DNA of 64,000 nt, taken from positions 256,001 through 320,000 of the forward strand of contig CAVZZO010000003.1 of NCBI GenBank assembly GCA_963779755.1, read 5' to 3'. The stretch's first letter is position 1; each line of letters begins with the position of its first letter. Below the pieces are notes generated by a model. That model saw only the letters and a program-made list of their open reading frames with translations, was not told the origin of the DNA and did not search any database. The translations under genes were made by a program, and so were the position numbers. This document shows positions 1,294 to 48,127 of the stretch, in pieces. Source of the stretch: an uncultured Gemmatimonadales bacterium. GTDB lineage: Bacteria > Gemmatimonadota > Gemmatimonadetes > Gemmatimonadales > GWC2-71-9.

Positions 1294-2256
1294 TCAACAT
1301 CGGGAAGCGCAGACGGGCGAGCGGTGCGCATGGTCACACCTGCTCCGGTGGGGGGGATCTTCGGGCGGCAGCACCCAGCCTTCGTTGAGCGCCAGGCGCC
1401 GGGGCCGGTCGGTCCAGCGTCGATACCACCAGAGGGCCACCACCAGCAGCGCCATGACGGTCCAGAACCCGCCCGCTGCCAGCCAGATCAGCAGGTTGTA
1501 GCGGTGCTTCAGGGTCTGGAGCCACTCCTCCTGGTATTGCCCCAGGGTACGCCCGGTGGCCGCGCGCACTGCGGCGGAAAAGTCCTCCCCCTGCTCCAGC
1601 CTCCGCATGAGCGGCGCGAGATCGTCGCCCGGAATGCGCCGGGCCAGTTCCATCACGGCCGACATGGCCAGCGCATACGCGCCGTCGGCCATCGAAGCCG
1701 TGCCCCGGAGCGCGGCGTTCAGACGATCGAAATCGGGAATGCTGCGCCGCAGCACCATCAGGCTCAGCCGCAGGGCGTCAAGCCGGTCCCACTCGCCGGC
1801 GGCCATGGCGGCGTAGCCTTCATCGAACCAGAGCGGGACGCGGGTCTGCACCGCGTGGTGCAGAGCGAGATGCGCCAGCTCGTGCCGCAGGGTGCGCCCC
1901 AGATCCGCCTGATCCGACCGGAGGACAATCGTTCGGCTGCCGGGAAAGGCGAGACCGGCACCCCAGGACGGGGCCCGGCCCCGCCCCACCTGCTCGAAGG
2001 TGGCGGCATCGGGGACCAGCACCAGCCGCAGCGGCGGTGGCCGGCGCGTGCCGAGGCCGGGCCAGCGGGCCGGCTGGCCGGCCCGTTCGGCCAGCGCCAG
2101 GGCGAGCGAGAGCTGGGCCGGCCGGGCGACGACCGTCACCGGGCCGACCTGGACGATCCTGGGTTCGTCTCCGGCAGGACGCTGCGCCGGCGCGCCCGGC
2201 GTCAGCCGTGCGGGCGCGGCCAGCGCAAGCAGAATCAGGCAGGCACGGACGGTCGT
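1294..2256 (-). CDS. Peptidase MA-like zinc metalloprotease with signal peptide and C-terminal TM helix
   Basis: TLRHELAH (HExxH) and PLWFDEGYA motifs. The frame stays open upstream of the track start (2139) through a signal-like segment beginning at ACG 2256. Confidence 0.8.
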   Translation of the reverse strand, partial: TTVRACLILLALAAPARLTPGAPAQRPAGDEPRIVQVGPVTVVARPAQLSLALALAERAGQPARWPGLGTRRPPPLRLVLVPDAATFEQVGRGRAPSWGAGLAFPGSRTIVLRSDQADLGRTLRHELAHLALHHAVQTRVPLWFDEGYAAMAAGEWDRLDALRLSLMVLRRSIPDFDRLNAALRGTASMADGAYALAMSAVMELARRIPGDDLAPLMRRLEQGEDFSAAVRAATGRTLGQYQEEWLQTLKHRYNLLIWLAAGGFWTVMALLVVALWWYRRWTDRPRRLALNEGWVLPPEDPPHRSRCDHAHRSPVCASRC

Positions 2257-3110
2257 GGCGGTGCTCCTCCGGTCGCCACCAGGTCCAGCAGTTCCTTGCA
2301 GCGTTTGCCCCAGGGGTTGAAACGGTTCGCCTTGGCGCCGTCGGTCCAGGCCGCGGTGGCCTGGTCCCGTTCACCGGCAAACCAGAGCGCGCGACCCAGT
2401 TCGTACCAGGCCTCGGTGAGATTGGGGCCCAGTTCAAGCGTCTTGCGGAAGAAGACCTGGGCGTCTTCGAACATCTCGCGCTCCAGGTAGACCAGCCCGA
2501 GGTAGAAATGGGCGTAGAGCGTGGCCTTGCGGTCGTTATCCAGCCGGATGGCCTTGGAGAGATGCTCGATCGCTTCGCCGAAGATGCGCTTCTTGAGGCA
2601 GATATAGCCCACATTGATCCGGGCCAGCGAATTGGCCGGCTCGCGCATCAATACCTTGCTGAAGGTCGCGAGCGCGTCGTCGTAATCCTCGTGGAGCATC
2701 TGGGCCCAGCCCAGCAGCGACTGCGCCTGGATATCGCCGGGCGCCAGCGTGAGTGCCCGGGTGAGGGCCTGGATGGCGCCGTCATAGTCGCCCAGCGAAA
2801 TGAGGCTCCAGCCCTTCTCGATGAAGGTCGAGGCACCCAGATGGTCGGCGTGCATCATGGGCCGTGCGCCGGTGAACTTCGGCGCCTGGGCGTTTTCGGC
2901 TTCCCCCGCGGCCTGCTTGTACCGTTCCACCAGGGTGCGAATATCCTCCTTGAGGCGCGTCAGTTCGCCCAGCGTACCGTCAACTTCCTTGAACAACCCG
3001 ATGATATCGCGTTTGATCCCTTCCCGGCTCGCCTGGCTGGAGACCTGCTCCAGGGCCGACGCGATCGCGTCGTACCGCCGGCGGAGCGCGGACGCGTAGC
3101 TGTCGTTCAC
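2235..3110 (-). CDS. N-terminal coiled-coil plus TPR protein
   Basis: Helical N-terminus followed by about 5 TPR repeats (e.g. AHFYLGLVYLEREMFEDAQVFFRKTLELGP); 4-nt overlap with upstream cheW. Confidence 0.85.
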   Translation of the reverse strand: MNDSYASALRRRYDAIASALEQVSSQASREGIKRDIIGLFKEVDGTLGELTRLKEDIRTLVERYKQAAGEAENAQAPKFTGARPMMHADHLGASTFIEKGWSLISLGDYDGAIQALTRALTLAPGDIQAQSLLGWAQMLHEDYDDALATFSKVLMREPANSLARINVGYICLKKRIFGEAIEHLSKAIRLDNDRKATLYAHFYLGLVYLEREMFEDAQVFFRKTLELGPNLTEAWYELGRALWFAGERDQATAAWTDGAKANRFNPWGKRCKELLDLVATGGAPPRPSVPA

Positions 3111-3604
3111 TGGCCGGCCTCCCCGGGCGCGGCCCCCGCCACCGGCTCCAGGCCGTCGGCCAGCGCGAGGCGCTCCTCCGAGTTCAGCAGCCGGTTGGCA
3201 TGCAGCAACAACACGGTGCGCTTCCCCCGCGGCAGGATCCCCGCGATGTATTCGGCCGCGAGCCCGCGCACCATGGGCGGCGGCGCGCTGATGGCCGTGC
3301 TGTCCACCCGGGCGACTTCGACCACCCGGTCCACCGTCACCGCCACCCGATGGTCGTCCAGCTGGAGCACTACCAGCCGGGTCTCGTCGGTGTGGGGGGC
3401 CGGCATCTCCAGCCGCCGCCGGAGGTCCACCAGCGGCACCACACCCTCACCATAAGGAATGACCCCCTCGAGGAAGGCGGGAGCCCGGGGCAGCCGGGTC
3501 GGCTCCTGCCAGCGGAGGATCCGCTCCACCTGAAAGATGTCGACCCCGAACTCCTGCGGCCCTACCTCGAAGATCACGATCTGCACCTGGTCATCGGTCA
3601 GCAT
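3107..3604 (-). CDS. cheW: Chemotaxis coupling protein CheW
   Basis: QIVIFEVGPQEFGVDIFQVERI, PRAPAFLEGVI, VPLVDLRRRL, VTVDRVVEV. Confidence 0.92.
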   Translation of the reverse strand: MLTDDQVQIVIFEVGPQEFGVDIFQVERILRWQEPTRLPRAPAFLEGVIPYGEGVVPLVDLRRRLEMPAPHTDETRLVVLQLDDHRVAVTVDRVVEVARVDSTAISAPPPMVRGLAAEYIAGILPRGKRTVLLLHANRLLNSEERLALADGLEPVAGAAPGEAGQ

Positions 3605-4031
3605 GCGGGACCTCCATTGCTGTCAGGCGCGTTGCCAGCGCCGCGATATCCAGAATCGGGATCCAGGCGTCGTCCCGGCGGGTCACCGCCACCGCCCAGG
3701 GCAGCGTTTCGCCGGCCGGGACGGGCAGCAGCTCACCCTGCACCACCGCCTCGGCCTCATCGACATCCAGCAGCAGCAGGGCACTGCCCAGCCGCAGCAG
3801 GATGCCCATCGTGTCCGCCCGGGCCGGCGGCTCCGGATCCTGCAGCAGCTGCCGCAGGTCGACGACCGGCACCAGGTGACCGCGCACCGGCGCCAGGCCG
3901 CGGCATGCCGCCGCCGCGGCCGGCACGGGGTGAATGCCGGCAATGTCCTCTACGGCCACCACATGCTCCAGCGGCAGCCCCACCCGGCGCCTCCCCAGAC
4001 GCACCAGCAGGAATTCCAGCGCTCCGGTCAT
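3591..4031 (-). CDS. cheW: CheW-like protein (divergent)
   Basis: [40 protein letters not shown]. Confidence 0.85.
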
Positions 4032-5098
4032 GAATGATCCAGACGCTCGAGCAACTGCATGACCCGGGCCGCGATCTCGCCCAGCGGGAGAACCTGGTCG
4101 GCGCCTCCGGCCTGCCGCGCTGCGTTGGGCATGCCGTAGACCGTAGCCGTGGATCGGTCCTGCGCGATCCCGAAGCCGCCTGCGTTATGGATGGCCCGCA
4201 GGCCGGCCGCGCCGTCCCGGCCCAGGCCGGTCAGCACCACCCCGACCGCGCGCCGTCCAAACTGCTCTGCCACCGATTGGAACAGCGGGTCGGCGGCGGG
4301 CCGCACGCCCCAGATCGACGGGCCCTGCTCCAGCCGCAGCACGGGGCCATCCGGCCCGGCCGCAACCCGCAGGTGGTAGTCGCCCGGAGCCACGAAGGCG
4401 CTGTCGGCCAGGAGCGGCATACCGTCCTCCGCCTCGACCACCCGCAGGGCGCTCTGCCCCGCCAGGCGCTCGGCCAGGCCGCGGGTGAACGCGGCCGGCA
4501 TATGCTGCACGATAACCACGGCCGCTCCCCGGCCCAGGCTCAGGCAGGGCACCACCTCCGCCAGCGCGCGAGGGCCGCCGGTGGAGGCGGCGATCGCGAC
4601 ACAGGCGCTGGCCAGATCGTGACCGGCGCTCTTCCGGGGCGGTGCCTTGCGGGGCCGGGCCAGCACCGGCAGGCGCCCGATGTCCGCCACCAGGGCCGCA
4701 TCCAGCGCCGCCACCAGGGCCGGCCCCAGGCGCTCCAGTCCATCCCGGCCGGCGCGGGGGTTCTTGTCCACGATTTCCACCGCGCCGAGTTCCAGCGCAC
4801 GGATGGCCGCCTCGCTGCCGGTGCCGGCGTGGGCGCTGAAGACCACGATCGGGCGCGGGACCTCGGACATGATGTAGCCGATCGCCTCCAGGCCGTCGAC
4901 CTGGGGCATTTCCAGGTCCATGACCACGATGTCGGGCTGGTACTGGTGCACCTTGCGCAGTCCGTCGAGGCCGTTGCGGGCCGTGGCCACCACCCGAAAC
5001 CTGCCGGTACGGGCGAGCAGCTCGGTCAGGACCTGGCGCACCAGGGCGCTGTCGTCCACGACCAGCACCGAGGTGTGCTCAGAGGATTTGTTCACCAC
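4028..5098 (-). CDS. cheB: Chemotaxis response regulator / methylesterase CheB
   Basis: Receiver domain (VVDDS, MDLEMP) plus methylesterase motifs [20 protein letters not shown]. Confidence 0.96.
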
Positions 5099-5567
5099 GC
5101 GCCGCCGTCCGCACGACCACCTGTCCGTTGGCCACCCGGAACCAGACGGAGCGGCCGCAGTCGCCGCCGACCAGCTCCCGGATGAGCGGGATGCCGTGCC
5201 GGTGCAGTACCTCGCGGGCCGCCACCAGGTTGCGTTCGCCCATCTGGATGGTGCCGGGGGTGGAGAGATTGGTGAACAGCGACGCCCCGCCCACCAGCCG
5301 GGCGGTCACCCGGCGCGGGTTGGCGCCCGCGGCACCCATGGCCTCGAGCAGCGCCGGAACGGCGGTGTGGGGCACCCGTCCCGGGCGATCCGACCGGCGG
5401 TTGAGCGACAGACTCGGCAACATGACGTGCGCCAGCCCGCCCACCCGGGTGGCCGGATCGTGCAGGAGGATGGCGACACAGGAGCCCAGCCCCAGGGTCA
5501 CCAGCACCGTCCCCTCGGAGCCGACGGCCAGCTCGGCCACCCCGACGATCGTTTCGCAGTCGCTCAC
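5079..5567 (-). CDS. cheD: Chemoreceptor glutamine deamidase CheD
   Basis: [37 protein letters not shown] start overlaps the cheR stop (GTGA). Confidence 0.95.
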
Positions 5568-6388
5568 CGGAGCCGCCGGTAAATGCGTTCCCGGGTGTCC
5601 ACCAGCTCCAGGTGCTCCCTCACCTCTCCCAGCACCGTCTCCACCTTGCCCAGCACCAGATATCCTCCCGGCTGCAACGACCGGAGGAACAGACCGAAGA
5701 GACGGTCCTGCATCGGCCGGTCGAAATAGATCAGAACATTGCGGCAGATGATCATGGCATAGTCGTGGTGCGGCGGCTCCTCCCGGGTGAGATCCAGCCG
5801 CCGGATGCTCACCCGGCGCCGCAGGGCCGGCAACACTTCCCGCCCCCTGTCGCGTTCGCCGGTGAAGGCCGCCAGGAGCTCCGGCGGCGTCTCGCTGAAG
5901 GCATCCTCGGGATACCAGCCGCTCCGGGCGCGATCGAGCGAGACCCGGTCGATGTCGGTGGCATCGATGGCCAGCCGGTCCAGCCACTCGGGATGCCCCG
6001 CCTCCCGGGCGGTCCGCTCCGCCAGCATGGTAAGCGAATAGGGTTCTTCTCCCGAGGCGCACCCGGCGCTCCAGATCCGCAGCGGTGTCCAGGGCCGCTG
6101 CCACAGTGCCGGCAACACTTCGGCCTCCAGCCGCTGCCACAGCTCCGGATTGCGGAAGAAGCGCGTCACGTTGATGGTCAGGGCGTCGGCCAGGCGCTGG
6201 TACTCCCCCGGCTCCGCTTCGAGGATGCGCAGGTATTCCTCGTACGAGGCGGCGTTGGTCGCCCGCATGCGCACCGCAATGCGCCGCCTCAGGCAGCGCG
6301 GCTTGTAGGCATCGGCCGCCAGGCCCGCGCCCTCGGAGATCTTCCGCGCCAGCCGCAGGAACTCCTCCTCCTCGCCTGTCGCGCTCAC
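5564..6388 (-). CDS. cheR: Chemotaxis methyltransferase CheR
   Basis: LTINVTRFFRN, RIWSAGCASGEEPYS, ATDID, ICRNVLIYFD; GTG start at 6388 overlaps the upstream stop. Confidence 0.96.
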   Translation of the reverse strand: MSATGEEEEFLRLARKISEGAGLAADAYKPRCLRRRIAVRMRATNAASYEEYLRILEAEPGEYQRLADALTINVTRFFRNPELWQRLEAEVLPALWQRPWTPLRIWSAGCASGEEPYSLTMLAERTAREAGHPEWLDRLAIDATDIDRVSLDRARSGWYPEDAFSETPPELLAAFTGERDRGREVLPALRRRVSIRRLDLTREEPPHHDYAMIICRNVLIYFDRPMQDRLFGLFLRSLQPGGYLVLGKVETVLGEVREHLELVDTRERIYRRLR

Positions 6389-8001
6389 GCCCCAACCTTG
6401 AGCGTCTCGAGATTGCTGCGAGCCAGTTGGTGCGCCGGGTTGAGTGCCGTGGCGCGGCGCCAGCACTCCCGCGCGCGATCCTGGTCGCGCCGCCGGTAGG
6501 CGATATTGCCCAGCTTGAAATAGAGATCGTCGCCCAGTTCCGGATCGAGCTTGGCGGCGCGCTCGTACGACTCCAGCGCTTCGTCGTAGCGTCCCGCACG
6601 GTAGAGCAGATCGCCCATGTTCTTGGAGGCCTGGGGCAGCGTCGGCTCTTCCTCGAAGGCGGCCCGCGCCATGACCTCGGCCGCCGCCGTATCGCCGGTG
6701 AACTCGAGCAGGGCCGCAAGATTGTTCCGCAACACTGCATTGGCGGGCCACGCGTCGACGCCCGCCTGCGCGTGCTCCACCGCCGCCTGCAGCTCGCCCG
6801 CGCCGGCCGCCGCCAGGCCCGCCGCCCAGAACCAGAGCGGCGGCGGCGGCCGCTCGCCCAGCAGCTCGCGGGCGCGCGCCAGCCGGCCGGTCGCCACCTC
6901 ATGCTCCTCCCGTTTCAGCGCGGCAATGGCCCAACTCAGCATGTAGCGCGCGTCGTCCCGGGCACGAGTCACCGCCTCGGCGTAGGCGGCCTCGGCCTCT
7001 TCGATCCGTCCCAGCTGTTCCAGCGCCACCCCCAGGTTATGCAGCGTAGGCGCGCTGGCGCCGCCCGCCTCGGAGGCCTGGCGAAACAGCTGCAGCCCTT
7101 CCTCCCAGCGCGCCTGCCGCAGCGCGATGAGCCCCAGATGGAACACGGCGCCGGGCTTGCCCGGCCGCAACTCGTGCACCCGGCGAAACTCGCGCTCGGC
7201 TTCGTCCAGCATGCCGGTCTTGTAGAAGGCGATCCCCAGGTTCTGGTGCTCCTCCACCCGGCCCTCCGCCGCGCGCGGCGGCGCGGCGACGCTGGTGCCG
7301 ACGCGGTGCACGAACCCCGCCGTGATCAGCCCGTACAGCGCCTTCCCCGCTTCGAACTCCACCAGTCCGGAATCGTCCATCAGTTGCTGCACGTCGCGAC
7401 TGCCGTCCAGCAGCGGGAGCAGCCGTTCCTGTTCCGGCGAGAGCGCCACGGAGGCGCCGTCCAGGTGTTCCTGATCGGCCGCGAAGATCATATCGAAGCT
7501 GGGGATCTTCTTCTCGATGAGGCTCCATTCATCCACCCGCCGGGCCCCTTCCAGCAGCAGCGACTCGGGGTTGATCTGAACCAGGAACTCCTCCGTCTCC
7601 GGCCGAACCCCCGCCTCGAAGTTGAAGGTGCCCGACGACCAGGTGAAGAGATAGTAGACGGCCTCTTCGATCTGGGTCCGGATATGCCGGCGCAGCTCAT
7701 CCTGATTCAGGGCTCCCATGTCGACCAGAATCCGGCCCAGCCGGCGGTGCCGGTCGGCGTGCTGCTCCTCGATGGCACGCTCCAGCTGCTCGGCCGAGAT
7801 CCGGCCCGCCTTCACCAGCATGTCGCCCAGACGGTCGCGCCGGTTGACGATCGACGCGTAGCAGATCCGCCCCTGGTCGAAGTAGATGTACCCGAAGTTG
7901 TGGCGGTCGGCCACGGCCAGGCACCCGGTCTTGCGGCCCAGCGACAGCAGTTGCAGCACGTCCGGCAGACTGGCTTCGCGGAGACTTCCCTTGATCGCCA
8001 T
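6385..8001 (-). CDS. DUF4388 / MshEN-like / TPR protein
   Basis: Starts [28 protein letters not shown] (DUF4388-type); tandem RLGxxLVxxG motifs; LLEGARRVDEW; C-terminal TPRs. TGATG overlap with the upstream gene. Confidence 0.88.
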   Translation of the reverse strand: MAIKGSLREASLPDVLQLLSLGRKTGCLAVADRHNFGYIYFDQGRICYASIVNRRDRLGDMLVKAGRISAEQLERAIEEQHADRHRRLGRILVDMGALNQDELRRHIRTQIEEAVYYLFTWSSGTFNFEAGVRPETEEFLVQINPESLLLEGARRVDEWSLIEKKIPSFDMIFAADQEHLDGASVALSPEQERLLPLLDGSRDVQQLMDDSGLVEFEAGKALYGLITAGFVHRVGTSVAAPPRAAEGRVEEHQNLGIAFYKTGMLDEAEREFRRVHELRPGKPGAVFHLGLIALRQARWEEGLQLFRQASEAGGASAPTLHNLGVALEQLGRIEEAEAAYAEAVTRARDDARYMLSWAIAALKREEHEVATGRLARARELLGERPPPPLWFWAAGLAAAGAGELQAAVEHAQAGVDAWPANAVLRNNLAALLEFTGDTAAAEVMARAAFEEEPTLPQASKNMGDLLYRAGRYDEALESYERAAKLDPELGDDLYFKLGNIAYRRRDQDRARECWRRATALNPAHQLARSNLETLKVGA

Positions 8002-9953
8002 CAGCGGGCCTCCTCGATCAGGCGGTCCGCCGGCTCGGGCCAGTCCCAGACCAGCTTCTCCCGGCTGCGCAGGCCGCTCGCGACCGACACCACCACCCCG
8101 CTGAACCGCGGTCCGCTGCGCCGCGGGGTCCGTCCGGGAGCGCCCTCGAGGACCTCGCGCGCCAGCGCCGCTGTCGGCGCCTCCTGCCGCGCTTCCGCCG
8201 CCTGGAGCACCCGCTGCACCACGCCCTGGAGCGTTCGCACCGAATCCACCGTGCGGCCTGCCAGGTACTCGGCCAACCCCGCATCGCAGCTGCCCAGGTG
8301 GTCGCGCAGCAGCCGTTCCAGCACGGCCTGGCGCACCTCCCGCTCGGGCGGCGGCAGATGCACCACCAGCCCGCCCTCCAGCCGGCTCACCAGACGCGGC
8401 TCCAGGCCGTCGACCTCGGTGAGCGGCGAGACGGAGGTGAAGACCATCTGCCGGCCCGCCTCGGCGAGCTCGTTGAAGAGCCAGAACAGCTCTTCCTGGG
8501 TGCGATCCTTGCCTGCCAGCAGGTGGATGTCGTCCAGCAGCAGCGCGGTGATGCGGCGGTAGCGGGTGCGCCACCAGCCGATCCGGTCCCGGTCGATGGC
8601 GCCGATCAGCTCATCCACGAACTCGGCGGCGGTGAGACACGCCACCACCGTGTTCTCCCCGGCGCCGAGCGCGTTGCCGATGCCGTGCAGCAGATGGGAC
8701 TTGCCGGTGCCGCTGGGCCCCACGATGACCAGCGGGTTGTAGCGGCTTCCCGGCTGCTCCGCCACGGCCTGGGCGGCCCGGGCGGCGATCCGGTTGCCCG
8801 GCCCCTCGGCAAAATCCGCCAGTTGCCAGTGCGGCGACGGCCGCGGCGGGGGCGCCACGCCCTCCCGCGCGCTGGCCACCAGCGCCTCCGCTTCCTCCAG
8901 GCGATCGGGATCGCGGAAGACGGCATGGCCGCCCAGCGCCGTGTCAAGGTCGGTGGCTTCCGCCTCCAGGACACGCAGTCGCTCGACATCGTCGGCGTAG
9001 CGGGCCAGCAGCCCGTCCGGGTCGGGCGGCATGTCCTCTTCCAGCAGTGCGTCCAGCCGCGCCGTGCGGTAGCCTTCGCCCTCCCAGCGGAGCACCGCCT
9101 CGGCCACCCGTCCGCGCCACGCCTCCACCTGCTGAGCCACGGTGCTGGTGATTTCCGACAGGAAACTGGAGAATTCGTCGCTCCGCTCCGCCGGCGCGTC
9201 CTCGTCCTCGGGGGCAGCCGGGGGCGCCACCGCCGTCGGCCGGCCCAGCACGCCGGGCACTTCCTCCGACCGTAGGGGCTCGGTGCGGACGGCCTGGTAG
9301 GCGATCAGCCGGTTCAGCGCGCCGATCAACTCGCGCACGTTGGTGTACTGCGGAGCCGCCACCGCTTCCAGCACGCCGGCCGCGAAGGTCACGTTGCGCT
9401 CCTCCGCGTGGCGGCGGACGATGGCAACGCGCGTTTCGTAGTCGGGCGCGGTGATGTCGATGACCAGCCCGCCGGCGAAGCGCTGAACCAGCCGTTCGTC
9501 CAGTGCCTCGATGTCCTCCGGACCGCGATCGCTGGTGAGAACGATCTGATGCCCGGCGGTCTGCATGATGTTCACCAGCCGGAGCAGCTCGGCCTGCATC
9601 TCCCGCCGCCGGGCCAGAAACTGGACGTCGTCCAGCAGCAGCAACCCGACCTCGCCGTACCGGCGCCGGTAGGCTTCACCCTGCCCCGCCGCCAGCGCGG
9701 CGTGATAGGCCTCCACCAAGTCGTCCAGCGTCTGGTATTCGCAACTGAGCCCCGGATTGATCGCCTGTGCCGCCTGGGCGATGGCCATCAGCAGGTGGGT
9801 CTTGCCCAGGCCCGGGCCGCTGTAGAGGAACAGCGGGTTGTAGACGTTCCCCGGCGACTCGGCCACTGCCTTGGCCGCGGTGACCGCCAGCCGGTTGGCG
9901 GCGCCCACCACGAACGTCTCGAAGCGCAGCCGCGCGTTGATGCCGCCGGTCAT
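8001..9953 (-). CDS. Protein with two tandem DnaA-type AAA+ ATPase domains and no DNA-binding domain IV
   Basis: Copy 1: [48 protein letters not shown]. Copy 2: [55 protein letters not shown]. Confidence 0.9.
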
Positions 9954-12203: not shown

Positions 12204-13338
12204 GGCCGCCTCGCAGGGCTCGCTCCAGGGTGTAGGCTGCTTCGCGGGCGGAACGGACCTCGAGCGAGTGCGCCGCTTCCTCCGGCGACAGATCGGGCAT
12301 TGCGCTCCAGCGGTCCCAGCTCTCGACCGCCTCCAGAAAAAGGCCGCGGGCGACCAGGCTATAGCCCAGCAGCCGCAGCGCCGGAACGCACTGGAGATCG
12401 AGCTGCAGCGCCCGCTGCAACGCCGCCGTGGCCTCCTGGTGATGTCCCTCGGCCAGGTGGGCGCGGCCCACCGCGGCATGCGCCAGCGGCTCGTCCGGAT
12501 GCCGCGCCACGGCCTCTTCCGCCAGGCGGCGCGCCGTCTCGGGCTGCCCCCGCAGCAGTTCGTCCTCCGCCCGGGCGATCAGCATGGCCAGTTCCCGGCC
12601 GCCCGGCGGCTCGGCCGGCCGGGACACCGGATCCTCCAGCATGAGGATCCCGGTGCTGGCGAGCCCGAAGAGCGTCTTGGCCACCTCGAACTCGGAACGG
12701 CGTAGATGCTGGGAGAGATCCCGCACGTCCTGGCGGCCGTCCACCATGGCCAGCACTTCCCACTCGAACGGAATGAGGTCGAGACGGGAGTCGTTCCCCT
12801 GCGCCAGCCGGGGAATGATGCCGAGGTGGGGAATACGCGTCTCGATGCGGGACCATTCGTCGATCCGCCGGGCCGCTTCCATCAGCAGCGCCTCGGTGGG
12901 GATTCGGATGTCCGCTTCCGTCGGCAGCTCGCCGGGATCGCCCTCCTCGAAGGAGAAGTACCCCTCCGACCAGCTGAGCAGCTCGAAGACGACCTCCTCC
13001 ACCTGGCCCCGCACCCGGCGCTCCAGCTGCCGCCGGGAGATCGCCCCGATGGAGACCAGGATTTCGCCCAGCTTGCGGCCGTCGCCGTTTTCCTGCATGG
13101 CACGGGCGCGAGTCAGGTCTTCTTCCGAGAGCTTGCCGGCCCGGAGCAGCAGCCCGCCCAGCGGGTGCGGGTTGCTGCGGATCTCCGCGCCCACCACACC
13201 TCCCCGCTCGAAGTACACCGTGCCCGCGTTGAGCCGGATCTCCGAGCGCACCTTGAGCGCTCCCGTCTTCCGGCTCAGGTCCAGCAGCTGGAAGACGTCG
13301 TGGATGCTGAGCTCGCGCAGCGGGCCTTCGATCGCCAT
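12196..13338 (-). CDS. DUF4388 / degenerate MshEN-like / TPR protein
   Basis: MAIEGPLRELSIHDVFQLLDLSRKTG, LLMEAARRIDEW, C-terminal TPRs; paralogue of 6385-8001. Confidence 0.88.
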   Translation of the reverse strand: MAIEGPLRELSIHDVFQLLDLSRKTGALKVRSEIRLNAGTVYFERGGVVGAEIRSNPHPLGGLLLRAGKLSEEDLTRARAMQENGDGRKLGEILVSIGAISRRQLERRVRGQVEEVVFELLSWSEGYFSFEEGDPGELPTEADIRIPTEALLMEAARRIDEWSRIETRIPHLGIIPRLAQGNDSRLDLIPFEWEVLAMVDGRQDVRDLSQHLRRSEFEVAKTLFGLASTGILMLEDPVSRPAEPPGGRELAMLIARAEDELLRGQPETARRLAEEAVARHPDEPLAHAAVGRAHLAEGHHQEATAALQRALQLDLQCVPALRLLGYSLVARGLFLEAVESWDRWSAMPDLSPEEAAHSLEVRSAREAAYTLERALRGGRE

Positions 13339-16013
13339 CAGGCCCTCCGCCGGGAGAAGATATGCTGCAGCTCGCGCGCGGAGCGTGTCTCGTTGCGGGC
13401 CAGCTGCGCGAAGGACGAGGCCGGCGCCTGCTGAACCACCCGTTCCCAGAGCTGAACCGCCTCCTGGAAGCGGCGCAGCCGCGCCAGCGTCATGCCGACG
13501 AAATAGAGGGCGCCGGGATTGTCGGGATCGAACCGCAGCACCCGGCGGAACGCCTCCAGCGCCTCGACCACGCGCTGGTCGTCCATCAGGGCGCGGCCCA
13601 GAAGCGTCAGCGCGTCAAGGTCGAGCGGTTCGGTGGTGAGCAGCGCCACCAGCACCTCCACCGCCGCCGCCGGCGACTCGGTGCGGCGCAACAGATCGGC
13701 CAGCCCGAGCACCGCCTCCACGTAGCTCGGCAAGAGGTCCACTGCGTGCTCGTAGCACTGCCGGGCCGCGCTCCAGCGCTCCCGCCGTTCCTCCAACTGG
13801 GCCAGCTCGAACCAGACCTGCGCCAGGGTTCCGTCGAGTTGCAGGGCGCCGTGGTACGCTTCGGCGGCCTCCTCCAGCTGGCCCAGCCGCTCGTTGACGC
13901 GGGCCTGCAGCTGCAGCAGGTCGGGACGGCCGGGTGCGCGCGCCTGCGCCTCCTTCACCAGATCCAGGGCACCGACCGGATTCCCCCCGTGCAGCCGGGT
14001 CTGGGCCGCGGCCACCAGCACGTCGACGTCCTCCGGGCGCCGCTCCACCAGCTCCTCCGCCAGGGTCCCCGCTTCTCCCGCCCGGTCCAGCGCGAGCAGG
14101 CTGCGGACCTCCCCCAGCAGGGCTTCTTCATCGCCCTGCAGCATGGCGCCGGCCTGGCGGTACCGCTCCAGGGCTTCGCCGTGCAGGCCGCGCCGGGCGT
14201 AGATATGGCCCTGCAGCACCAGCGCCCGCCCCTCCTGGGCGCCGCGGCCCCGGGCCCGGTCCAGTTCGCCCACCGCCCGCTCCAGCAGCCCCTTCTGGAT
14301 GTACTCCCGGGCCAGCGCCAGCGGATCCTCGACCCCGGCCGGCTCGGGAGCGGGCGCAGCGCTCAACTCCTTGAAGAACTGGTCCAGCAGCCGCTGGTCG
14401 AAGACGAAGTCCTCGCCCATCTGCTCGGTGCGGACATCGGCGGAGATCTCCGGCACCACGGCGATGGTGGGGTCTTCGTACTGCAGGTCGATGGCCAGGG
14501 AAAACTTCTGCGGGACATAGTAGGGCTCCAGCTCCAGGGCCTGCTTGGTCTCCCGCAGCGCTCCGTCGTAGTCTCCCAGCTGGCTCAGGGTGAAGCTCAG
14601 GTTGTAGTGGGCCGAGGCATTGCGCGGATCGGCCTCCACCGCGCGCACGAAGGCGTTTCGCGCATCGCTGAAGCGTTTGATCTCGGTCAGTACCAGCCCC
14701 ACGCCGTTCCAGGCGACGGCATTGCGCGGGGCCTCGGCCAGCACCTGGCGGTAGGCCTCCAGCGCCAGCTGAAAGCGACGGCGCTGGAACAGGAGCAGGC
14801 CCAGGTTGAGCCGGCCGGCGGTCAGGTCGCGGCGGCAGCGGAGCGCCTGGTGGAAGGATTCCACCGCGTCCTCGTTCTCCAGGCCGTGGCGGCTCTGCAG
14901 CACGCCCAGATTGTTCCAGGCCAGGGCATAGTTGCGGTCCAGCCGGATTGCCTGCCGGTAAGCTGCCTCGGCCTCTTCCCGCCGTCCGGCCTGGTGCAGG
15001 CAGACGCCCAGCTCGTTCTGCAGCTTGGGCGAATCGTCGTATTCCTGGACCAGCTCCTGGTAGAGATCGAGGGCGCCGCCCAGGTCGCGCCGCAGCAGGT
15101 GCACCTCCGCCATGGCCTGCAGGGTGAGCCGGCGATCCTCGCCCTGTTCCAGCGCCATACGGTACTCCCGCAGGGCCTCGAGGTAGTAGCCCTTCTGCCG
15201 GAAGGCGAGCCCGAGGTTGAAATGCGCCAGCGTGGCGCCCTCGGTGACGCTGGGCCGGGCCGGGGCCTCGGGGGCGGCGCCGTTTCCCGTGATCTGCTGC
15301 AGCGACAGGTTGGTATGCGCACGGGCGAGCGTGGGGTTCAGCGTGATGGCGCGCTTGGTGGCGGCCCGCGCCGCCTCGTGATAACCCAGGTCGCCGTAGA
15401 GGAACGCCAGCAGGTAGTGCGCATCGGCGTTGTCCGGGTTGAGCGCGACCGCTTCCTGCAGCACCGCGCGCGCCTGGTCCGGCAGGCCGCGGTTGTACAG
15501 CGCCTCGCCGTAGTAGAAGAGCGCGACGCTGCTCTCCGGATCGAGTTCGCTGGCGCGGCGGAAGTGGTCGCAGGCCTCCTCGGGGCGGTTGGAAGCCTTC
15601 TCGGCCAGGCCCAGCTGAATCAGGGCCGGCACGTCCTTCGGATACTGCTCGACCAGCGTGTGGAACTCCGCGATGGCCTCATCGCCCTGCCCCATGGAGG
15701 CGTAGGTGCGGGCCAGCTCCCAGCGCGCGTCCCGTTGAGAGGGCTGGCGCCGCAGCACCTCCCGCAGTTCCGAGACCCGGCGGTCGTAGTATCCGGAGCT
15801 GCGATAGGCGATCTCCAGGTTGGCCTGTGCCACCTGCATCCGCGAGTCGAGCTCGAGCGCGCGCCCGAACTCGGCGATGGCTTCCGCGATCAGCCCTTTC
15901 TGGTAGTAGAGGACGCCGAGATTGTTATGGGCCCCGGCGTCGGAAGGATCGATCCGCCGCGCGAACGTCCGCAGGACTCCGAGGTCACGCTCCGAGAGCA
16001 CGGGCGCGGGCAT
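13338..16013 (-). CDS. Large cytoplasmic TPR protein (891 aa)
   Basis: Many canonical TPRs (AHNNLGVLYYQKG, AHFNLGLAFRQKG, AWNNLGVL, AHYNLSFTL); no signal peptide. Confidence 0.92.
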   Translation of the reverse strand: MPAPVLSERDLGVLRTFARRIDPSDAGAHNNLGVLYYQKGLIAEAIAEFGRALELDSRMQVAQANLEIAYRSSGYYDRRVSELREVLRRQPSQRDARWELARTYASMGQGDEAIAEFHTLVEQYPKDVPALIQLGLAEKASNRPEEACDHFRRASELDPESSVALFYYGEALYNRGLPDQARAVLQEAVALNPDNADAHYLLAFLYGDLGYHEAARAATKRAITLNPTLARAHTNLSLQQITGNGAAPEAPARPSVTEGATLAHFNLGLAFRQKGYYLEALREYRMALEQGEDRRLTLQAMAEVHLLRRDLGGALDLYQELVQEYDDSPKLQNELGVCLHQAGRREEAEAAYRQAIRLDRNYALAWNNLGVLQSRHGLENEDAVESFHQALRCRRDLTAGRLNLGLLLFQRRRFQLALEAYRQVLAEAPRNAVAWNGVGLVLTEIKRFSDARNAFVRAVEADPRNASAHYNLSFTLSQLGDYDGALRETKQALELEPYYVPQKFSLAIDLQYEDPTIAVVPEISADVRTEQMGEDFVFDQRLLDQFFKELSAAPAPEPAGVEDPLALAREYIQKGLLERAVGELDRARGRGAQEGRALVLQGHIYARRGLHGEALERYRQAGAMLQGDEEALLGEVRSLLALDRAGEAGTLAEELVERRPEDVDVLVAAAQTRLHGGNPVGALDLVKEAQARAPGRPDLLQLQARVNERLGQLEEAAEAYHGALQLDGTLAQVWFELAQLEERRERWSAARQCYEHAVDLLPSYVEAVLGLADLLRRTESPAAAVEVLVALLTTEPLDLDALTLLGRALMDDQRVVEALEAFRRVLRFDPDNPGALYFVGMTLARLRRFQEAVQLWERVVQQAPASSFAQLARNETRSARELQHIFSRRRA

Positions 16014-16018
16014 GATCC

Positions 16019-16639
16019 CTACGAGAGGCGAATGGCGTCGAAGACGGCCCGGAGGGAGGCGAGGTCAGGCATGAGCAGGAAATGGCCCCGGAGCCCGCGG
16101 TTTTCTTCGGAGAAGACGAACTCGGTCTCCAGACAGAAGACGAAATCCCGTTCGTACCCGAAGTTCAGATAGGTGCTGGTGAGCACGGCGCCGGCCAGGT
16201 CCACCACCAGCCCCGGAACCGAGGGAAGCAGCATCATCCCCATGAAGTCGCTCAGGGCGTTGAGATAGGCGCTGCTCAGGATGTTCCCCGCTTCCTTGAG
16301 CCCCGACTGTTCCATCTCGCCGAATTCGGTGGTGGTGCCCATCTCGCGGCGCAGCAGGATGTCGCACAGCTCTTCGGCGGAATCGCGGGGAAAGACGATC
16401 ATGGTCCGGCCCGTCAGGTCGCCCATCATGTGCATCAGCACCGCGGCGACGATGTCGTCGGGACTGCCCAGCAGCCGGCAGACCTCCTCCAGCCGGGTGA
16501 TGTTCACCTCGGGCACCGAGATCATGATCTTGCGGCCGGTCATCTGGGACAGGGCGGTGGCGGCGTGCCCTGCCCCGATGTTGGCGACCTCGCGCAAGGC
16601 ATCGAGTTGCAGCTCCTGCAGGTTCCGGATGTCGTCCAC
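16019..16639 (-). CDS. cheC: Chemotaxis phosphatase CheC
   Basis: Two DxxxExxN-type motifs: DALREVANIGAGHAATALS and SGLKEAGNILSSAYLNALS. Confidence 0.95.
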   Translation of the reverse strand: MDDIRNLQELQLDALREVANIGAGHAATALSQMTGRKIMISVPEVNITRLEEVCRLLGSPDDIVAAVLMHMMGDLTGRTMIVFPRDSAEELCDILLRREMGTTTEFGEMEQSGLKEAGNILSSAYLNALSDFMGMMLLPSVPGLVVDLAGAVLTSTYLNFGYERDFVFCLETEFVFSEENRGLRGHFLLMPDLASLRAVFDAIRLS

Positions 16640-16647
16640 AGGGCCTC

Positions 16648-18525
16648 CTAGACCAGCGCAGCCGCATCGAGAATGAGCGCGGGCTCGCCATCCGCCAGGA
16701 TGGTCGCCCCGCTGAAGACCGGCAGCATGCCGCGCGGCGGATCGAACGGTTCCACGACGATCTCCTGCTGCCCCAGCAGCGCATCGACCACCACCGCCGC
16801 GCGCTGGCCCGCCGACTCCAGGATGATGGTCGGCCGCCGGGGCGGCAGCTCGCCACCGGCCACCCGCAGGAGGTCGCGGATGTGGCGGGTAGGAATCACC
16901 GACTGGCGCAGCACCAGCGCCTCCCGGCCACCCATGGTGGTGAGCCGGCCGCCATCGTATTCCACCGTTTCCGCCACGTGGGCCAGCGGCACCGCGTAGC
17001 GCTCCGCGCCCACCCGGGCCAACAGCACCCGCACCACCGCCAGGGTCACCGGCAGGTACAGGGTGAACGTGGTGCCCCGGCCCATTTCGGTCGCGATGGC
17101 CACCGAGCCGCCCAGGGCCCGCACCTGCGCCACGACCGCATCGATCCCCACGCCGCGGCCGGAGACGTCGGTCACCCGGGCGGCGGTGCTGAACCCGGGC
17201 CGCGCGATGAGCCGCAACAGGCCTTCGTCGCTCAGCGATCCGGCTTCGGCCTCCAGCACGCCGTCCTGCACCGCCCGCTGCACGATGCGCGCGCGATCCA
17301 GCCCGCGTCCGTCGTCCGCCACCCGCACCGCCACCCCGCGCTGGTCCCGGGTGGCGCTCAGGATGATGCGGCCGACTTCCGGCTTGCCCTTCCGGCGGCG
17401 CTCGGCCGGGCTCTCGAGGCCATGATCGAGCGCGTTGCGCAACAGGTGAAGCAGCGGGTCGCCCAGTTCATCCAGGATGGCGCGGTCCAGCTCGATATCG
17501 CCGCCCTCGAGCAGCAGCTCGACCCGCTTGCCCAGCTGGCGCCCGAGATCGCGCACCACGCGGGGAAAGCGGTCGAACACCTGCCATACCGGCGTCAGCC
17601 GGACCTGGATAACGTCGGCCTGCAGCTCCGACACCAGCCGGTGCATGCGGGCGGAGACGGCTTCCAGCTCGGGCTGGGAGCGGGGCGCCACCAGCTCCTG
17701 CAGCCGCTGTTCCGCCACCACCAGTTCGCCCATGTTGTTCAGCAGCGAATCCAGCCGGCGCAGGTCGACCCGGATGGAGCGGACCTCGTCTACCGTCTCT
17801 TCCACCGGGGCGTGCACCGGCATCTCGCCGATGGTCACCGCGTCGACATCGCCCGCCGCCCGGATGGCCGCCTGTACCGCCTGGTCGCTCAGGTCGGTAT
17901 CCAGCCGGAACGAGAACTGCCCGTCGAATTCCGCCTGCTCGAACGCCGCCACCGCGGGCCGGATGCCGCTCACCGACCCCAGGGCCTCCGCCCGCTTCAG
18001 TGCCAGCGCCGCGCGCGCCCCCCGCATGACCGCGTCGGGCCGGATGGCCACCCGCACCAGGCGGCCGGTGGGGCCGCGTGGCGCCGGCGCCTCGTGCAGA
18101 TCGTGCACCTCGCGCACCGCGCGCATCTCGCCGGTGTGCGACCGGGTCGCCTGGGCCGCCTGGCTCAGCGCGGTGATCAGCGCGGTGAAGTCGAGCTGAT
18201 CGTCACGACCCGCCACCGCCTCGTCCAGCGAGCCTTCCAGCGCGTCTACCGCGCGGAACAGCAGGTCGATCTGGTCCGGGTCGACCGCGGCCACCCGCTC
18301 GCGCAGCAAGGCGAGCAGGTCTTCGGTCTGGTGGGCCAGCTCCGCCACGCGGCCGTAGCCCATGGTGGCCGCCATGCCCTTGAGCGTGTGCATGGCCCGG
18401 AAGATCCCCGCGATGGGCGCCGGCTCCATCGGCACCCGCTCCAGCTCCAGCAACAGGCGGTTGCAGTCCTGCAGGTGCTCGCGGCCCTCGGTCAGGAAGA
18501 GCGCGGCGTAGCGGGAGACGTCCAT
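16648..18525 (-). CDS. cheA: Chemotaxis histidine kinase CheA
   Basis: HPt FRAMHTLKGMA, P2-like domain, HLLRNALDHGLE, DDGRG, PGFSTA, DVSGRGVG, C-terminal CheW-like domain. Confidence 0.97.
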   Translation of the reverse strand: MDVSRYAALFLTEGREHLQDCNRLLLELERVPMEPAPIAGIFRAMHTLKGMAATMGYGRVAELAHQTEDLLALLRERVAAVDPDQIDLLFRAVDALEGSLDEAVAGRDDQLDFTALITALSQAAQATRSHTGEMRAVREVHDLHEAPAPRGPTGRLVRVAIRPDAVMRGARAALALKRAEALGSVSGIRPAVAAFEQAEFDGQFSFRLDTDLSDQAVQAAIRAAGDVDAVTIGEMPVHAPVEETVDEVRSIRVDLRRLDSLLNNMGELVVAEQRLQELVAPRSQPELEAVSARMHRLVSELQADVIQVRLTPVWQVFDRFPRVVRDLGRQLGKRVELLLEGGDIELDRAILDELGDPLLHLLRNALDHGLESPAERRRKGKPEVGRIILSATRDQRGVAVRVADDGRGLDRARIVQRAVQDGVLEAEAGSLSDEGLLRLIARPGFSTAARVTDVSGRGVGIDAVVAQVRALGGSVAIATEMGRGTTFTLYLPVTLAVVRVLLARVGAERYAVPLAHVAETVEYDGGRLTTMGGREALVLRQSVIPTRHIRDLLRVAGGELPPRRPTIILESAGQRAAVVVDALLGQQEIVVEPFDPPRGMLPVFSGATILADGEPALILDAAALV

Positions 18526-18529
18526 CGGC

Positions 18530-18892
18530 TCAGCCGAGCACGCGCTGCACCGCCTCCAGCACCCGGGACGGCTGGAAGGGCTTCACCACGAAGTCCTTCG
18601 CCCCCGCCTGGATGGCTTCCACCACCAGCGCCTGCTGGCCCATGGCGCTGCACATCAGGATCTTGGCGTCCGGATCGTCGCGGCAGATCTCCCGCACCGC
18701 GTCGATGCCCCCCATATCCGGCATGACGATATCCATGGTGACCAGATCGGGCTTGAGCTGGCGGTACTTGTCCACCGCCTGCCGTCCGGTCTCGGCTTCT
18801 CCCACGACTTCGAAGCCCGCCTGCGCGAGAATGTCGCTGATCATCGTGCGCATGAAGATCGCGTCATCGCACACCAGCACCGTGTTGGCCAC
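18530..18892 (-). CDS. cheY: Chemotaxis response regulator CheY (Bacillus/Thermotoga type)
   Basis: VLVCDDAIFMR, PDLVTMDIVMP, CSAMGQQ, GAKDFVVKPFQPSRV. Confidence 0.95.
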   Translation of the reverse strand: MANTVLVCDDAIFMRTMISDILAQAGFEVVGEAETGRQAVDKYRQLKPDLVTMDIVMPDMGGIDAVREICRDDPDAKILMCSAMGQQALVVEAIQAGAKDFVVKPFQPSRVLEAVQRVLG

Positions 18893-18934
18893 GAAAGCCC
18901 TCCCTGCAAGTTGCGCCGTTTGGCCGGATGTCCG

Positions 18935-19372
18935 TCAGGCCGAGTACACCGGCCCCAGGACCGTTTCGGTATCCAGCACCACGAACACGCGATCGTCCCA
19001 CCGCCCCACCGCCTGCACCAGCCGCGGGTCTACACCCGGCAGGGTGTCCCGCTCGTCCAGTGCGGACGCGGGCAGGTGCAGGAGATCGTGCACCAGATCC
19101 ACGATGAGCCCGAGGAGACGTCCCCCCACGGCCAGCAGCAGGATGGACGGCTCCACCGCCGGCGGCCCGTCCCGGCCCAGCATCTGCCGCCCGTCGGCGA
19201 CGGTGATGAGCCGCCCGCGGACGTTCACCAGCCCGAGCACACCGGCCACCGCGCCAGGAATCCTGGCGGGGGGGTGGTAGGGAACGATCTCCTGCACGAT
19301 GCCGGTGGGGGCCGCGCAGAGGAGATCGCCTACCTGGAAGACCAGTAAAGACACCGTCTCGGCGTCAGCCAT
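18935..19372 (-). CDS. cheW: Chemotaxis coupling protein CheW
   Basis: LLVFQVG, PGAVAGVLGLVNVRGRLITVAD, LGLIVD; ATG 19372 overlaps the rluD stop by 8 nt. Confidence 0.9.
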   Translation of the reverse strand: MADAETVSLLVFQVGDLLCAAPTGIVQEIVPYHPPARIPGAVAGVLGLVNVRGRLITVADGRQMLGRDGPPAVEPSILLLAVGGRLLGLIVDLVHDLLHLPASALDERDTLPGVDPRLVQAVGRWDDRVFVVLDTETVLGPVYSA

Positions 19373-20372: not shown

Positions 20373-20402
20373 AACCGGAGGCCGCGGCGCGGCCGCCCGC
20401 GC

Positions 20403-21279: not shown

Positions 21280-21309
21280 GCGGTTTCCAGTGCTCAGGGG
21301 ACGCAACAG

Positions 21310-48122: not shown

Positions 48123-48127
48123 AACTC

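Follow-up and report, generated by a model that had tools for sequence, protein, structure and literature searches.

We analyzed a 64,000-nucleotide stretch of DNA from an uncultured Gemmatimonadales bacterium (lineage GWC2-71-9, assembly GCA_963779755.1, contig CAVZZO010000003.1, forward strand 256,001-320,000), hereafter termed the window, which carries on its minus strand (1294-19372) a 19-gene operon with chemosensory (che) genes on both sides of an inner block. The inner block encodes tetratricopeptide repeat (TPR), PATAN (DUF4388), Roadblock, MglB-like and MglA-like proteins together with an ATPase that has two DnaA-type AAA+ modules in tandem. We consider there to be somewhat better than an even chance that this operon, which is found lineage-wide in Gemmatimonadota, specifies a chemosensory pathway with a cytoplasmic output on polarity or motility, most likely exerted on type IV pili. 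A chemosensory system that steers an MglA polarity switch is a known theme (Frz-MglA), and the two-motor derivative of DnaA is the new component. Co-inheritance of the genes and their domain content are observations, the contact between the tail of the ATPase and a TPR groove is a computational prediction, and we infer all else that is proposed below.

Consistent with the original prediction, which was made from the sequence of the window and described 19 co-oriented genes in a defined order, all 19 genes were found on the minus strand and the assigned domains agreed with Pfam. The order is cheW, cheY, cheA, cheC, TPR891, PATAN-TPR380, TPR-Roadblock279, Roadblock116, mglB, mglA, the tandem ATPase gene, PATAN-TPR538, cheR, cheD, cheB, cheW, cheW, TPR291 and a peptidase gene (the numbers in these names are lengths in amino acids). 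At a G+C content of 70%, raw lists of open reading frames in the window are noisy, and frames were picked by third-position G+C and tested against Pfam. Start codons were set to the start nearest the upstream stop, a choice that is partly circular for the counting of junctions; with these starts, 12 of 18 junctions overlap and 4 further junctions measure 0-8 nt, such that 16 of 18 are overlapping or at most 8 nt wide, in line with the earlier claim that nearly all genes overlap or are less than 10 nt apart. The two wider junctions are those from cheW to cheY (42 nt) and from TPR291 to the peptidase gene (95 nt).

Relatives of the operon were drawn from a first set of 14 loci from three families, from the 80 best loci of a public species-level genome collection (39 of which span rluD, the gene upstream of the first cheW, to TPR291) and from a phylum sample of 151 Gemmatimonadota genomes in which the tandem ATPase was called at E <= 1e-60. 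The full order from rluD to the peptidase gene was kept in 14 of 14 loci of the first set, with identities of 71-85% for MglA, 53-69% for PATAN-TPR538, 44-62% for the ATPase and 49-76% for TPR291. Gene order was unchanged in the 80 best loci wherever the contig reaches, and the inner block was present with cheY, cheA and cheC in all 39 spanning loci. Because the order is kept in all 39 of these loci, the inner block belongs to the operon and is not a mere neighbor of the che genes, as had been proposed. The adaptation module varies among the same loci, with cheR and cheB present in 29 and the module missing in 10. TPR891 (13338-16013), a large protein of 891 aa made up of Pfam TPR families and with neither a signal peptide nor a transmembrane segment by simple hydropathy scan, is encoded wherever the inner block occurs. 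TPR-Roadblock279 is syntenic in relatives, and the peptidase gene is syntenic in most loci.

The double-DnaA gene was detected in 38 of 40 close relatives (one of the 38 being an unpublished genome), with the two exceptions sharing one genus, and the tandem ATPase was present in 99 of the 151 genomes of the phylum sample. By family (counts that take in two unpublished genomes), the ATPase was found in 70 of 71 genomes of the host's own family, f1, in 21 of 31 of f2, 2 of 2 of f3, the single genomes of f4 and f5 (1 of 1 each), 2 of 2 of f8 and 1 of 16 of f7; it was found in none of the genomes of f6 (0 of 6), f9 (0 of 1), f10 (0 of 13), f11 (0 of 3) and f12 (0 of 3). Named homologues of the double-DnaA protein were labelled Gemmatimonadota or Gemmatimonadales, and those distant relatives of the tandem ATPase that have a named source bore the label Gemmatimonadota. 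Two labels from outside the phylum, on Acidimicrobiia and Myxococcales metagenome-assembled genomes (MAGs) within the 80 best loci, were rejected as signs of spread; with 57-58% identity and short contigs, they are probable binning errors. In four public MAG loci (L041, L047, L067 and L090), several cluster genes were recovered in two or three tblastn pieces, which suggests assembly frameshifts or real decay.

Natural variants revealed that the modules of the operon can be lost separately. In two loci (L096 and L099) all che genes are lost, and the genes from TPR891 to PATAN-TPR538, TPR291 and the peptidase gene are retained, still next to rluD; in two others (L097 and L098) the che genes are decaying. 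One genus (L104) is missing the ATPase alone. A flagellated genus (L106) has kept the che genes, PATAN-TPR538 and TPR291 and lost TPR891 through the ATPase, and a distant genome (L101) holds just rluD, the ATPase, PATAN-TPR538 and the peptidase gene. Thus, the che and inner blocks are functionally linked yet separable. PATAN-TPR538 is the one inner component found in every variant, paired with the che genes, the ATPase or both, and for this reason is regarded as the hub of the system.

A single-protein search with the most distant tandem query (P0185, 33% identity) gave, among the matches listed, one true tandem relative and 79 ordinary DnaA loci. The relative, a full-length match, is from a 45%-G+C MAG labelled Candidatus Cloacimonetes, in which the order is CheA (with P2), an AAA_22 ATPase, CheW, CheC, a TPR protein (826 aa), a PATAN protein (241 aa) and a tandem DnaA protein (691 aa). 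No MglA or Roadblock gene was located between or next to the genes of this string. The link of che, TPR, PATAN and ATPase genes is thus wider than the link to MglA.

The tandem ATPase (650 aa, 8001-9953) matches Pfam Bac_DnaA in two stretches and is composed of module 1 (residues ~5-228), a helical linker (~259-365), module 2 (~375-605) and a conserved C-terminal motif (627-650). Residues 5-228 aligned with domain III of Bacillus subtilis DnaA at an E-value of 1.9e-48, with residue 5 at DnaA residue 111; domain I is missing, the protein beginning directly with domain III, and domain IV was represented by no Bac_DnaA_C (PF08299) match at E <= 0.01. The true DnaA of the host is encoded elsewhere (480 aa, Bac_DnaA_C 2.8e-25). 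Modules 1 and 2 are 42% and 41% identical to domain III of this DnaA and 36% identical to each other. Across 79 sequences, what we take to be the Walker A and B motifs, box VII arginine and sensor-2 arginine were invariant in both modules; the presumed sensor-1 aspartate of module 1 was also invariant, and module 2 has a valine at this position. The AF2 model of the protein (pLDDT 90, pTM 0.55) has two AAA+ modules, with residues 241-258 and 615-650 disordered, and its top Foldseek match was DnaA domain III (8bv3_A, TM 0.93, root-mean-square deviation [rmsd] 1.8 Å). A p97- or Rix7-like nature of the full-length protein was also considered and rejected, as the corresponding Foldseek rows had an rmsd of >20 Å and reflected only two AAA+ modules in a row.

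The protein scored above the cut-off of the NCBIfam DnaA model TIGR00362 because its chain contains two copies of the motor domain, and module 2 matched Hda models weakly (TIGR03420 at 166 bits, cut-off 194.8; 3bos at 2.1e-8). The linker and C-terminal motif are conserved and family-specific, and the motif is kept in nearly all members, short forms included. A strict pattern for the tail missed 32 of 97 loci; nearly all of these have a variant tail, apart from rows that are broken or partial (L041, L090 and L065). Fusions occur among the relatives: one tandem ATPase ends in a receiver domain, P0215 keeps the DnaA C-terminal helix-turn-helix, and two giant proteins (P0221 and P0223, of 1876 and 1990 aa) have an N-terminal MshEN followed by a DnaA-type AAA+ module, with the second module near the C-terminus. 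Like DnaA and Hda, both modules carry the domain III fold and the nucleotide and arginine-finger motifs. By contrast to these proteins, the ATPase has two motors per chain, is without domains I and IV, has a family-specific helical linker and a predicted C-terminal docking motif, and is encoded in an mglA/PATAN-TPR setting. Hda has one short AAA+ module and, at its N-terminus, a clamp-binding motif.

A likeness to DnaA of this extent could mean that the double-DnaA protein acts on replication or DNA, be it through Hda-like or decoy co-assembly with DnaA or as an anchor to single-stranded DNA or the nucleoid, in which case the che-MglA components would control the timing of initiation or have the chromosome as their scaffold. 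The identity of both modules to host DnaA, the invariant motor motifs and the DnaA-like model, whose structural matches include DnaA bound to single-stranded DNA (3r8f), are consistent with such a cell-cycle or nucleoid link, as are the combination of tandem modules with a DnaA helix-turn-helix in P0215, the divIVA gene 6 kb upstream and the Frz arrays of Myxococcus, which are nucleoid-bound. Nevertheless, the ATPase is devoid of domains I and IV in a genome that encodes a complete DnaA, and its gene lies in the 80 loci always between mglA and the PATAN-TPR gene and never near dnaN or the origin. Moreover, the predicted docking site of its family-specific tail is on PATAN-TPR538, the known fusion partners (receiver and MshEN) are signalling domains, and the L104 lineage has lost the ATPase alone and kept the rest. 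On balance, we regard a role in the cell cycle or at the nucleoid as improbable.

The two PATAN-TPR proteins of the operon, PATAN-TPR538 (538 aa, 6385-8001, DUF4388 2.4e-40 plus TPR) and PATAN-TPR380 (380 aa, 12196-13338, DUF4388 6.2e-34 plus TPR), contain the only PATAN domains encoded in the host genome. Pfam detected Response_reg in neither protein, and both run on from PATAN into TPR. PATAN-TPR538 has an MshEN-type insert (~54-113), a winged-helix-like region (~163-240) and a TPR superhelix (~245-538); its DUF4388 match falls in two stretches around the insert, and in the model helices 58-119 are placed inside a beta-rich core. The NCBIfam model of an MshE-related cyclic di-GMP (c-di-GMP) motif (NF053729, cut-off 38) gave 57.4 bits for PATAN-TPR538 and 35.9 bits, below the cut-off, for the receiver-less PATAN-TPR380, in which the MshEN-like insert is degenerate. 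Two tandem repeats of the motif (~57-80 and ~87-110) are present in PATAN-TPR538, and their key residues were invariant or nearly so in 79 sequences.

Residues 1-240 of PATAN-TPR538 were modelled with a pLDDT of 89 and a pTM of 0.81. In this model, the insert superimposed on c-di-GMP-bound MshE (5htl_B) with a VIA Z of 7.2 and an rmsd of 1.4 Å over 58 residues at 40% identity, and on c-di-GMP-bound Thermus PilF (8pdk) with a Z of 6.5 and an rmsd of up to 1.6 Å, likewise at 40% identity; Foldseek aligned it to MshEN structures with an rmsd of 1.2 Å over 56 columns. The insert thus resembles the MshEN c-di-GMP module of MshE and PilF in sequence and predicted fold, with the difference that the module is here inserted into the PATAN domain of a TPR scaffold and is not the N-terminus of a secretion ATPase. 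Based on the motif and the predicted structure, the PATAN proteins look like c-di-GMP receptors. For the beta-rich N-terminal core itself, neither Foldseek nor VIA returned a clear structural match. A Roadblock/longin-like fold of the core was considered and rejected, since the Foldseek rows to GATOR1/SEA were weak (E >= 0.04) and these matches sit on the winged-helix-like residues 163-240 (VIA Z 8.8, within the background range of the tool) and not on the PATAN core.

Structure prediction among the encoded partners, which had been called for in the original prediction, yielded a link within the inner block. Residues 229-650 of the ATPase were predicted together with full-length PATAN-TPR538, by use of 79-row alignments of both proteins, in three runs and with three controls. 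The complex reached an ipSAE of 0.79 compared to 0.47 for the best of the three controls; 116 of 157 solved complexes attained this mark, as against 2 of 215 mismatched pairs, a calibration that is only rough for custom alignments such as these. The runs shared at least 57% of contacts, and the partner pLDDT was at least 80. In the predicted interface, the ATPase tail (627-650), which is disordered in the monomer model, lies in the TPR groove of PATAN-TPR538 (residues 283-493). The C-terminal tail of the ATPase is thus predicted to dock in the TPR groove of the hub protein.

The GTPase of the operon (200 aa, 9950-10552) matched the solved MglA of Myxococcus xanthus at E 2e-71 with ~60% identity, and residue alignment revealed that it keeps the P-loop, an Arg-containing stretch in switch I and the Thr and Gln of the switch II motif. 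We take the hallmarks of group-1 MglA to be a P-loop, a switch I that carries an intrinsic arginine finger and a switch II motif that has the catalytic Gln and replaces Asp by Thr, and the cluster protein is of this type. Group-1 MglA was placed in Gemmatimonadetes by a survey of the family (PMC4316618), the available portion of which notes occasional PATAN neighbors and makes no mention of che genes or the ATPase. The MglB-like gene ends directly at the start of mglA, with a 0-nt gap. Its product (158 aa, 10553-11029), the presumed GTPase-activating protein (GAP) of the cluster MglA, matched solved M. xanthus MglB (6h5b_B) by phmmer at E 7.6e-8, also matched Thermus MglB, and was assigned to NCBIfam MglB at 1.4e-9, below the cut-off. 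Further upstream are genes for a stand-alone Roadblock/LC7 protein, Roadblock116 (116 aa, 11017-11367; Robl_LC7 3.6e-9, or 37.9 bits in a scan of the host genome), and for TPR-Roadblock279 (279 aa, 11364-12203), which has an N-terminal TPR_2 and a C-terminal Robl_LC7 match that is below the cut-off (E 0.0084; 0.0034 in the scan of the host genome).

A second MglA (224 aa) is encoded elsewhere in the host genome (G000; 4.23 Mb, 4 contigs, 97% complete) at G000:C3:577189-578077 (L108:5959-6633 plus upstream). This protein is 53% identical to the cluster copy, has a ~30-aa insertion near its C-terminus and is preceded by a Roadblock gene just upstream. Because it scores higher against M. xanthus MglA (288 bits compared to 243 bits for the cluster copy) and has a Roadblock gene of its own, the cluster MglA is regarded as a paralogue and not the orthologue of M. 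xanthus MglA. Both copies are present in most Gemmatimonadales of the 151-genome sample, and genomes without the inner block hold the second type only, such that the second type occurs in nearly all of the sampled Gemmatimonadales. Two more Roadblock/LC7 matches, with identical scores and in 149-aa frames, were located at G000:C2:6971-7234 and G000:C4:28009-28272; given their identical scores, the small contigs C2 and C4 may share a repeat or be duplicates.

The chemosensory genes provide a coupling protein, CheW1 (145 aa, 18935-19372, Pfam CheW 2.2e-25), a single-domain response regulator, CheY (120 aa, 18530-18892, Response_reg 3e-31), a CheA (625 aa, 16648-18525) with Hpt (P1), P2, H-kinase_dim (P3), HATPase_c (P4) and CheW (P5) domains, and a CheC of the CheY-P phosphatase type (206 aa, 16019-16639, CheC 1.2e-22). 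On the other side of the inner block are genes for the methyltransferase CheR (274 aa, 5564-6388, CheR 3e-46 plus CheR_N), the deamidase CheD (162 aa, 5079-5567, CheD 1.9e-23), the methylesterase CheB with a receiver (356 aa, 4028-5098, CheB_methylest 2.2e-61 plus Response_reg), CheW2 (146 aa, 3591-4031, CheW 2e-19), which went undetected in the loci of several relatives, and CheW3 (165 aa, 3107-3604, CheW 7.8e-33). Among the cluster proteins, CheY is the best conserved, with 82-93% identity in the 14 relatives. Its best NCBIfam match was CheY_Halo (127 bits, below the cut-off of 200); CheC matched CheC_Thtogales at 1e-50 and CheD matched CheD_Thtga at 3.5e-40, both also below the cut-off. These best matches, all below the curated cut-offs, fit the earlier assignment of CheC, CheD, CheY and CheA to the type found in Bacillus, Thermotoga and archaea. 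CheB scored 339.8 against NCBIfam PRK00742, above the cut-off of 293.

By profile search, the cluster CheA was the one H-kinase_dim match in the host genome. Pfam detected no gene for a methyl-accepting chemotaxis protein (MCP) in the operon; the genome has three MCP genes, all outside the cluster, for proteins of 564, 691 and 968 aa. The 564-aa MCP gene adjoins a gene for a periplasmic binding protein, the 968-aa MCP carries HAMP, and the 691-aa GAF-MCP is encoded right after an HD_5 (HD-GYP-like) protein at G000:C1:2158506-2161731 (locus L191), a neighborhood that provides a possible c-di-GMP link to the receptor side.

With CheC, CheD, CheY and a P2-bearing CheA that resemble those of the flagellar systems of Thermotoga, Bacillus and archaea, and with a CheY this well conserved, the operon might be read as an ordinary operon for flagellar chemotaxis that acquired an unrelated polarity block by insertion, its neighborhood being meaningless; some relatives are indeed flagellated. 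The host genome argues otherwise, as it contains, at 97% completeness, no match to FliG_C or to FHIPEP (FlhA). FliG was detected in 42 of the 151 genomes, including 14 of 71 in family f1, 13 of 31 in f2 and 13 of 13 in f10, and within f1 the cluster marker occurs without FliG in at least 56 of 71 genomes. Conversely, flagellated lineages exist without the cluster, namely f10 (tandem gene in 0 of 13) and the genus g59, and flagellated carriers (genus g58) have, in addition to the cluster, two further CheAs, one of which is encoded 30-44 kb from fliG. All 39 spanning loci also keep the arrangement, and the MAG that bears the label of another phylum has a related string of che, TPR, PATAN and ATPase genes. 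We therefore consider a chance insertion into a flagellar operon to be very improbable. The absence of FliG and FlhA from the host genome and the phyletic pattern together indicate that the output is probably not flagellar. The original prediction had named polarity, pilus control or the cell cycle as the output; co-occurrence supports the non-flagellar part of this claim, and the choice among the three outputs stays a matter of inference.

Components of type IV pili are present in the host genome, which has eight matches to the T2SSE ATPase family above the cut-off, including those in an operon of pilB (MshEN plus T2SSE), pilT and pilC (locus L109, G000:C1:1128020-1137756). Directly upstream of an M28 peptidase gene and pilB-pilT-pilC in this locus is a gene for a 1253-aa protein with SprA_N, of the type IX translocon. 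A cyanobacterial PATAN domain binds both PilB1 and PilC and is sufficient for the reversal of phototaxis, its insert resembles repeats in the N-terminus of PilB, and mglA and mglB genes often adjoin PATAN genes, according to the available portion of a report on this domain (10.1101/2021.06.11.447907). On these grounds, spatial control of type IV pili or of cell polarity on surfaces is the most likely output of the operon.

The same architecture could serve another output, such as type IX gliding or secretion, polar export of adhesin or exopolysaccharide, or a c-di-GMP-dependent switch between sessile and motile states. An SprA_N gene upstream of pilB-pilT-pilC would be in keeping with the first of these, as would the finding, in the part of the literature available to us, that Myxococcus MglA also drives gliding. 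A lifestyle switch would suit the c-di-GMP-type motif of both PATAN proteins (below the cut-off in PATAN-TPR380), and the operon ends in a gene for an HExxH peptidase with a hydrophobic segment; the presence of PilT does not distinguish among these outputs. By contrast, the only PATAN partners reported from experiment, in the available text of the same study, are PilB and PilC (10.1101/2021.06.11.447907), and no gliding-specific genes were found among the Pfam matches of the cluster. An output of this other kind is considered unlikely.

A pathway to type IV pili or cell polarity could be arranged as follows. MCPs encoded elsewhere would control CheA, and phosphorylated CheY, reset by CheC, would act on the hub of PATAN-TPR538 and ATPase, on the MglB/Roadblock proteins or on both. 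This step would decide the nucleotide state of the cluster MglA or where it is located, with the paralogous MglA/MglB/Roadblock set serving as the switch. The PATAN domains may then address PilB and PilC of the motor of type IV pili, as in cyanobacteria, and c-di-GMP would be a second input to the pathway. The double-DnaA protein, tethered to PATAN-TPR538 by its C-terminal peptide in the TPR groove, could function by analogy with DnaA as an ATP-dependent self-assembling scaffold or timer and not as an initiator. More tentatively, and with considerable doubt, we propose that an initiator-clade AAA+ ATPase may have left replication and become a signalling machine, in which the two-motor DnaA derivative, assembling with ATP on a c-di-GMP-sensing PATAN-TPR hub, may integrate phosphorylated CheY, c-di-GMP and the MglA cycle and so determine the place and time of activity of pili or of another polar machine, such that the operon would encode a polarity oscillator run on three nucleotides (ATP, GTP and c-di-GMP), for which no counterpart has been described. 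As the MAG labelled with another phylum has a che-TPR-PATAN-ATPase string without MglA, a three-nucleotide system of this kind would be older than its MglA part.

Several observations weigh against a pilus-directed polarity pathway of this design. Variants exist without che genes, without MglA and the ATPase, without the ATPase, or with the ATPase and PATAN-TPR538 only; with modules this separable, the parts may be able to work apart, and their order of action is not fixed. PilT, present in 148 of the 151 genomes, fits a pilus output and does not discriminate. The polarity switch proper could instead be the canonical mglB-mglA pair encoded outside the cluster. Both AAA+ modules keep the DnaA motifs (apart from the valine at sensor-1 of module 2), and an interaction with DnaA or DNA is conceivable. 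The score of the predicted complex is the confidence of a model and not a measurement, and in the two loci that lack the ATPase, 9-10 of 17 interface residues are retained, compared to a mean of 12.1, such that the TPR side is not visibly relaxed.

The system most similar to the operon is that of M. xanthus, Frz-MglA/MglB(/MglC/RomR-RomX), which likewise joins a Che-type pathway to a group-1 MglA, a Roadblock GAP and further Roadblock proteins, and which likewise involves a TPR effector, SgmX. Frz is marked by the CheA-receiver fusion FrzE, a cytoplasmic MCP (FrzCD) encoded in the operon and the double-receiver protein FrzZ. By contrast, the CheA of the present operon has no fused receiver and ends in its CheW domain, no MCP is encoded in the operon, and the only receivers are those of CheY and CheB. 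The operon has genes for CheC and CheD, its MglA is a second paralogue in addition to a canonical pair, and the two PATAN-TPR proteins and the double-DnaA ATPase are without a Frz counterpart. In addition, the genes form one operon here, whereas Myxococcus mglA is not near the genes of its partners, as stated in the portion of PMC4316618 available.

Cyanobacterial Tax/Pix systems with PatA-type regulators resemble the operon in the pairing of a chemosensory pathway with a PATAN domain that has a PilB-N-terminus-like helical insert (in the available part of 10.1101/2021.06.11.447907), and in a non-flagellated organism with pilB, pilT and pilC. They differ in that the PATAN proteins of the operon carry TPR and not a receiver, and in that the known systems are without MglA, Roadblock or ATPase components. 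By analogy, a separate CheY would be the receiver of a 'split PatA'. In the actinobacterial conservon CvnA-D, an operon similarly joins a sensor kinase, a Roadblock protein and an MglA-family GTPase (available text of PMC4316618), with a membrane histidine kinase and a group-2 MglA and without Che, PATAN, a TPR scaffold or an AAA+ ATPase. The original prediction had offered the combination as one with no characterized example, and a search of the full-text literature, to which subscription journals are largely external, retrieved no description of the arrangement. The checks that the original prediction set for its own refutation, so far as they were run here, did not refute it. No paper that joins a DnaA-like protein with MglA was found in this search, nor was any description of a DnaA motor used in this manner outside of replication control.

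Most of what is understood about the wiring of chemosensory systems to polarity comes from Myxococcus, in which the components lie scattered and their connections emerged one at a time. The operon gathers a candidate pathway from kinase to GTPase to a putative adaptor of the pilus motor, and its natural deletion variants supply a parts list and partner predictions. It is probably the main behavioral control system of a phylum that is abundant in soil and water and, in our sample, mostly non-flagellated. As the cluster is present in genomes that resemble cultured genera, genetic tests are feasible.

The operon ends with genes for TPR291 (291 aa, 2235-3110, Pfam TPR) and for an HExxH-type Peptidase_MA_2 protein (281 aa, 1294-2139, Pfam 3e-12), in which a hydropathy scan detected a single hydrophobic segment near the C-terminus (residues 215-233). 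At its other end, there is an 8-nt overlap between the start of the first cheW and the rluD stop, and further genes of the same strand lie upstream; the transcription unit may thus begin ahead of cheW, in divIVA-ileS-dksA-like-lspA-rluD. Consensus scans of the operon were uninformative, with 0 promoter-like sites compared to 1.1 expected and 6 terminator-like sites compared to 5.3 expected. The upstream string (minus strand, 19365-26498) consists of YggS-like, divIVA (25298-25813), ileS (21310-24462), dksA-like, lspA and rluD genes, and resembles the end of the division-cell-wall cluster of Bacillus. rluD still adjoins the cluster in relatives without any che gene. Elsewhere in the window, on the plus strand (43285-58653), are genes for pyruvate:ferredoxin-oxidoreductase-like proteins of 683 and 1815 aa, followed by RnfC-like, Rnf-Nqr membrane subunit and ApbE genes. 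The 1815-aa protein is unusually long and has a C-terminal ferredoxin domain.

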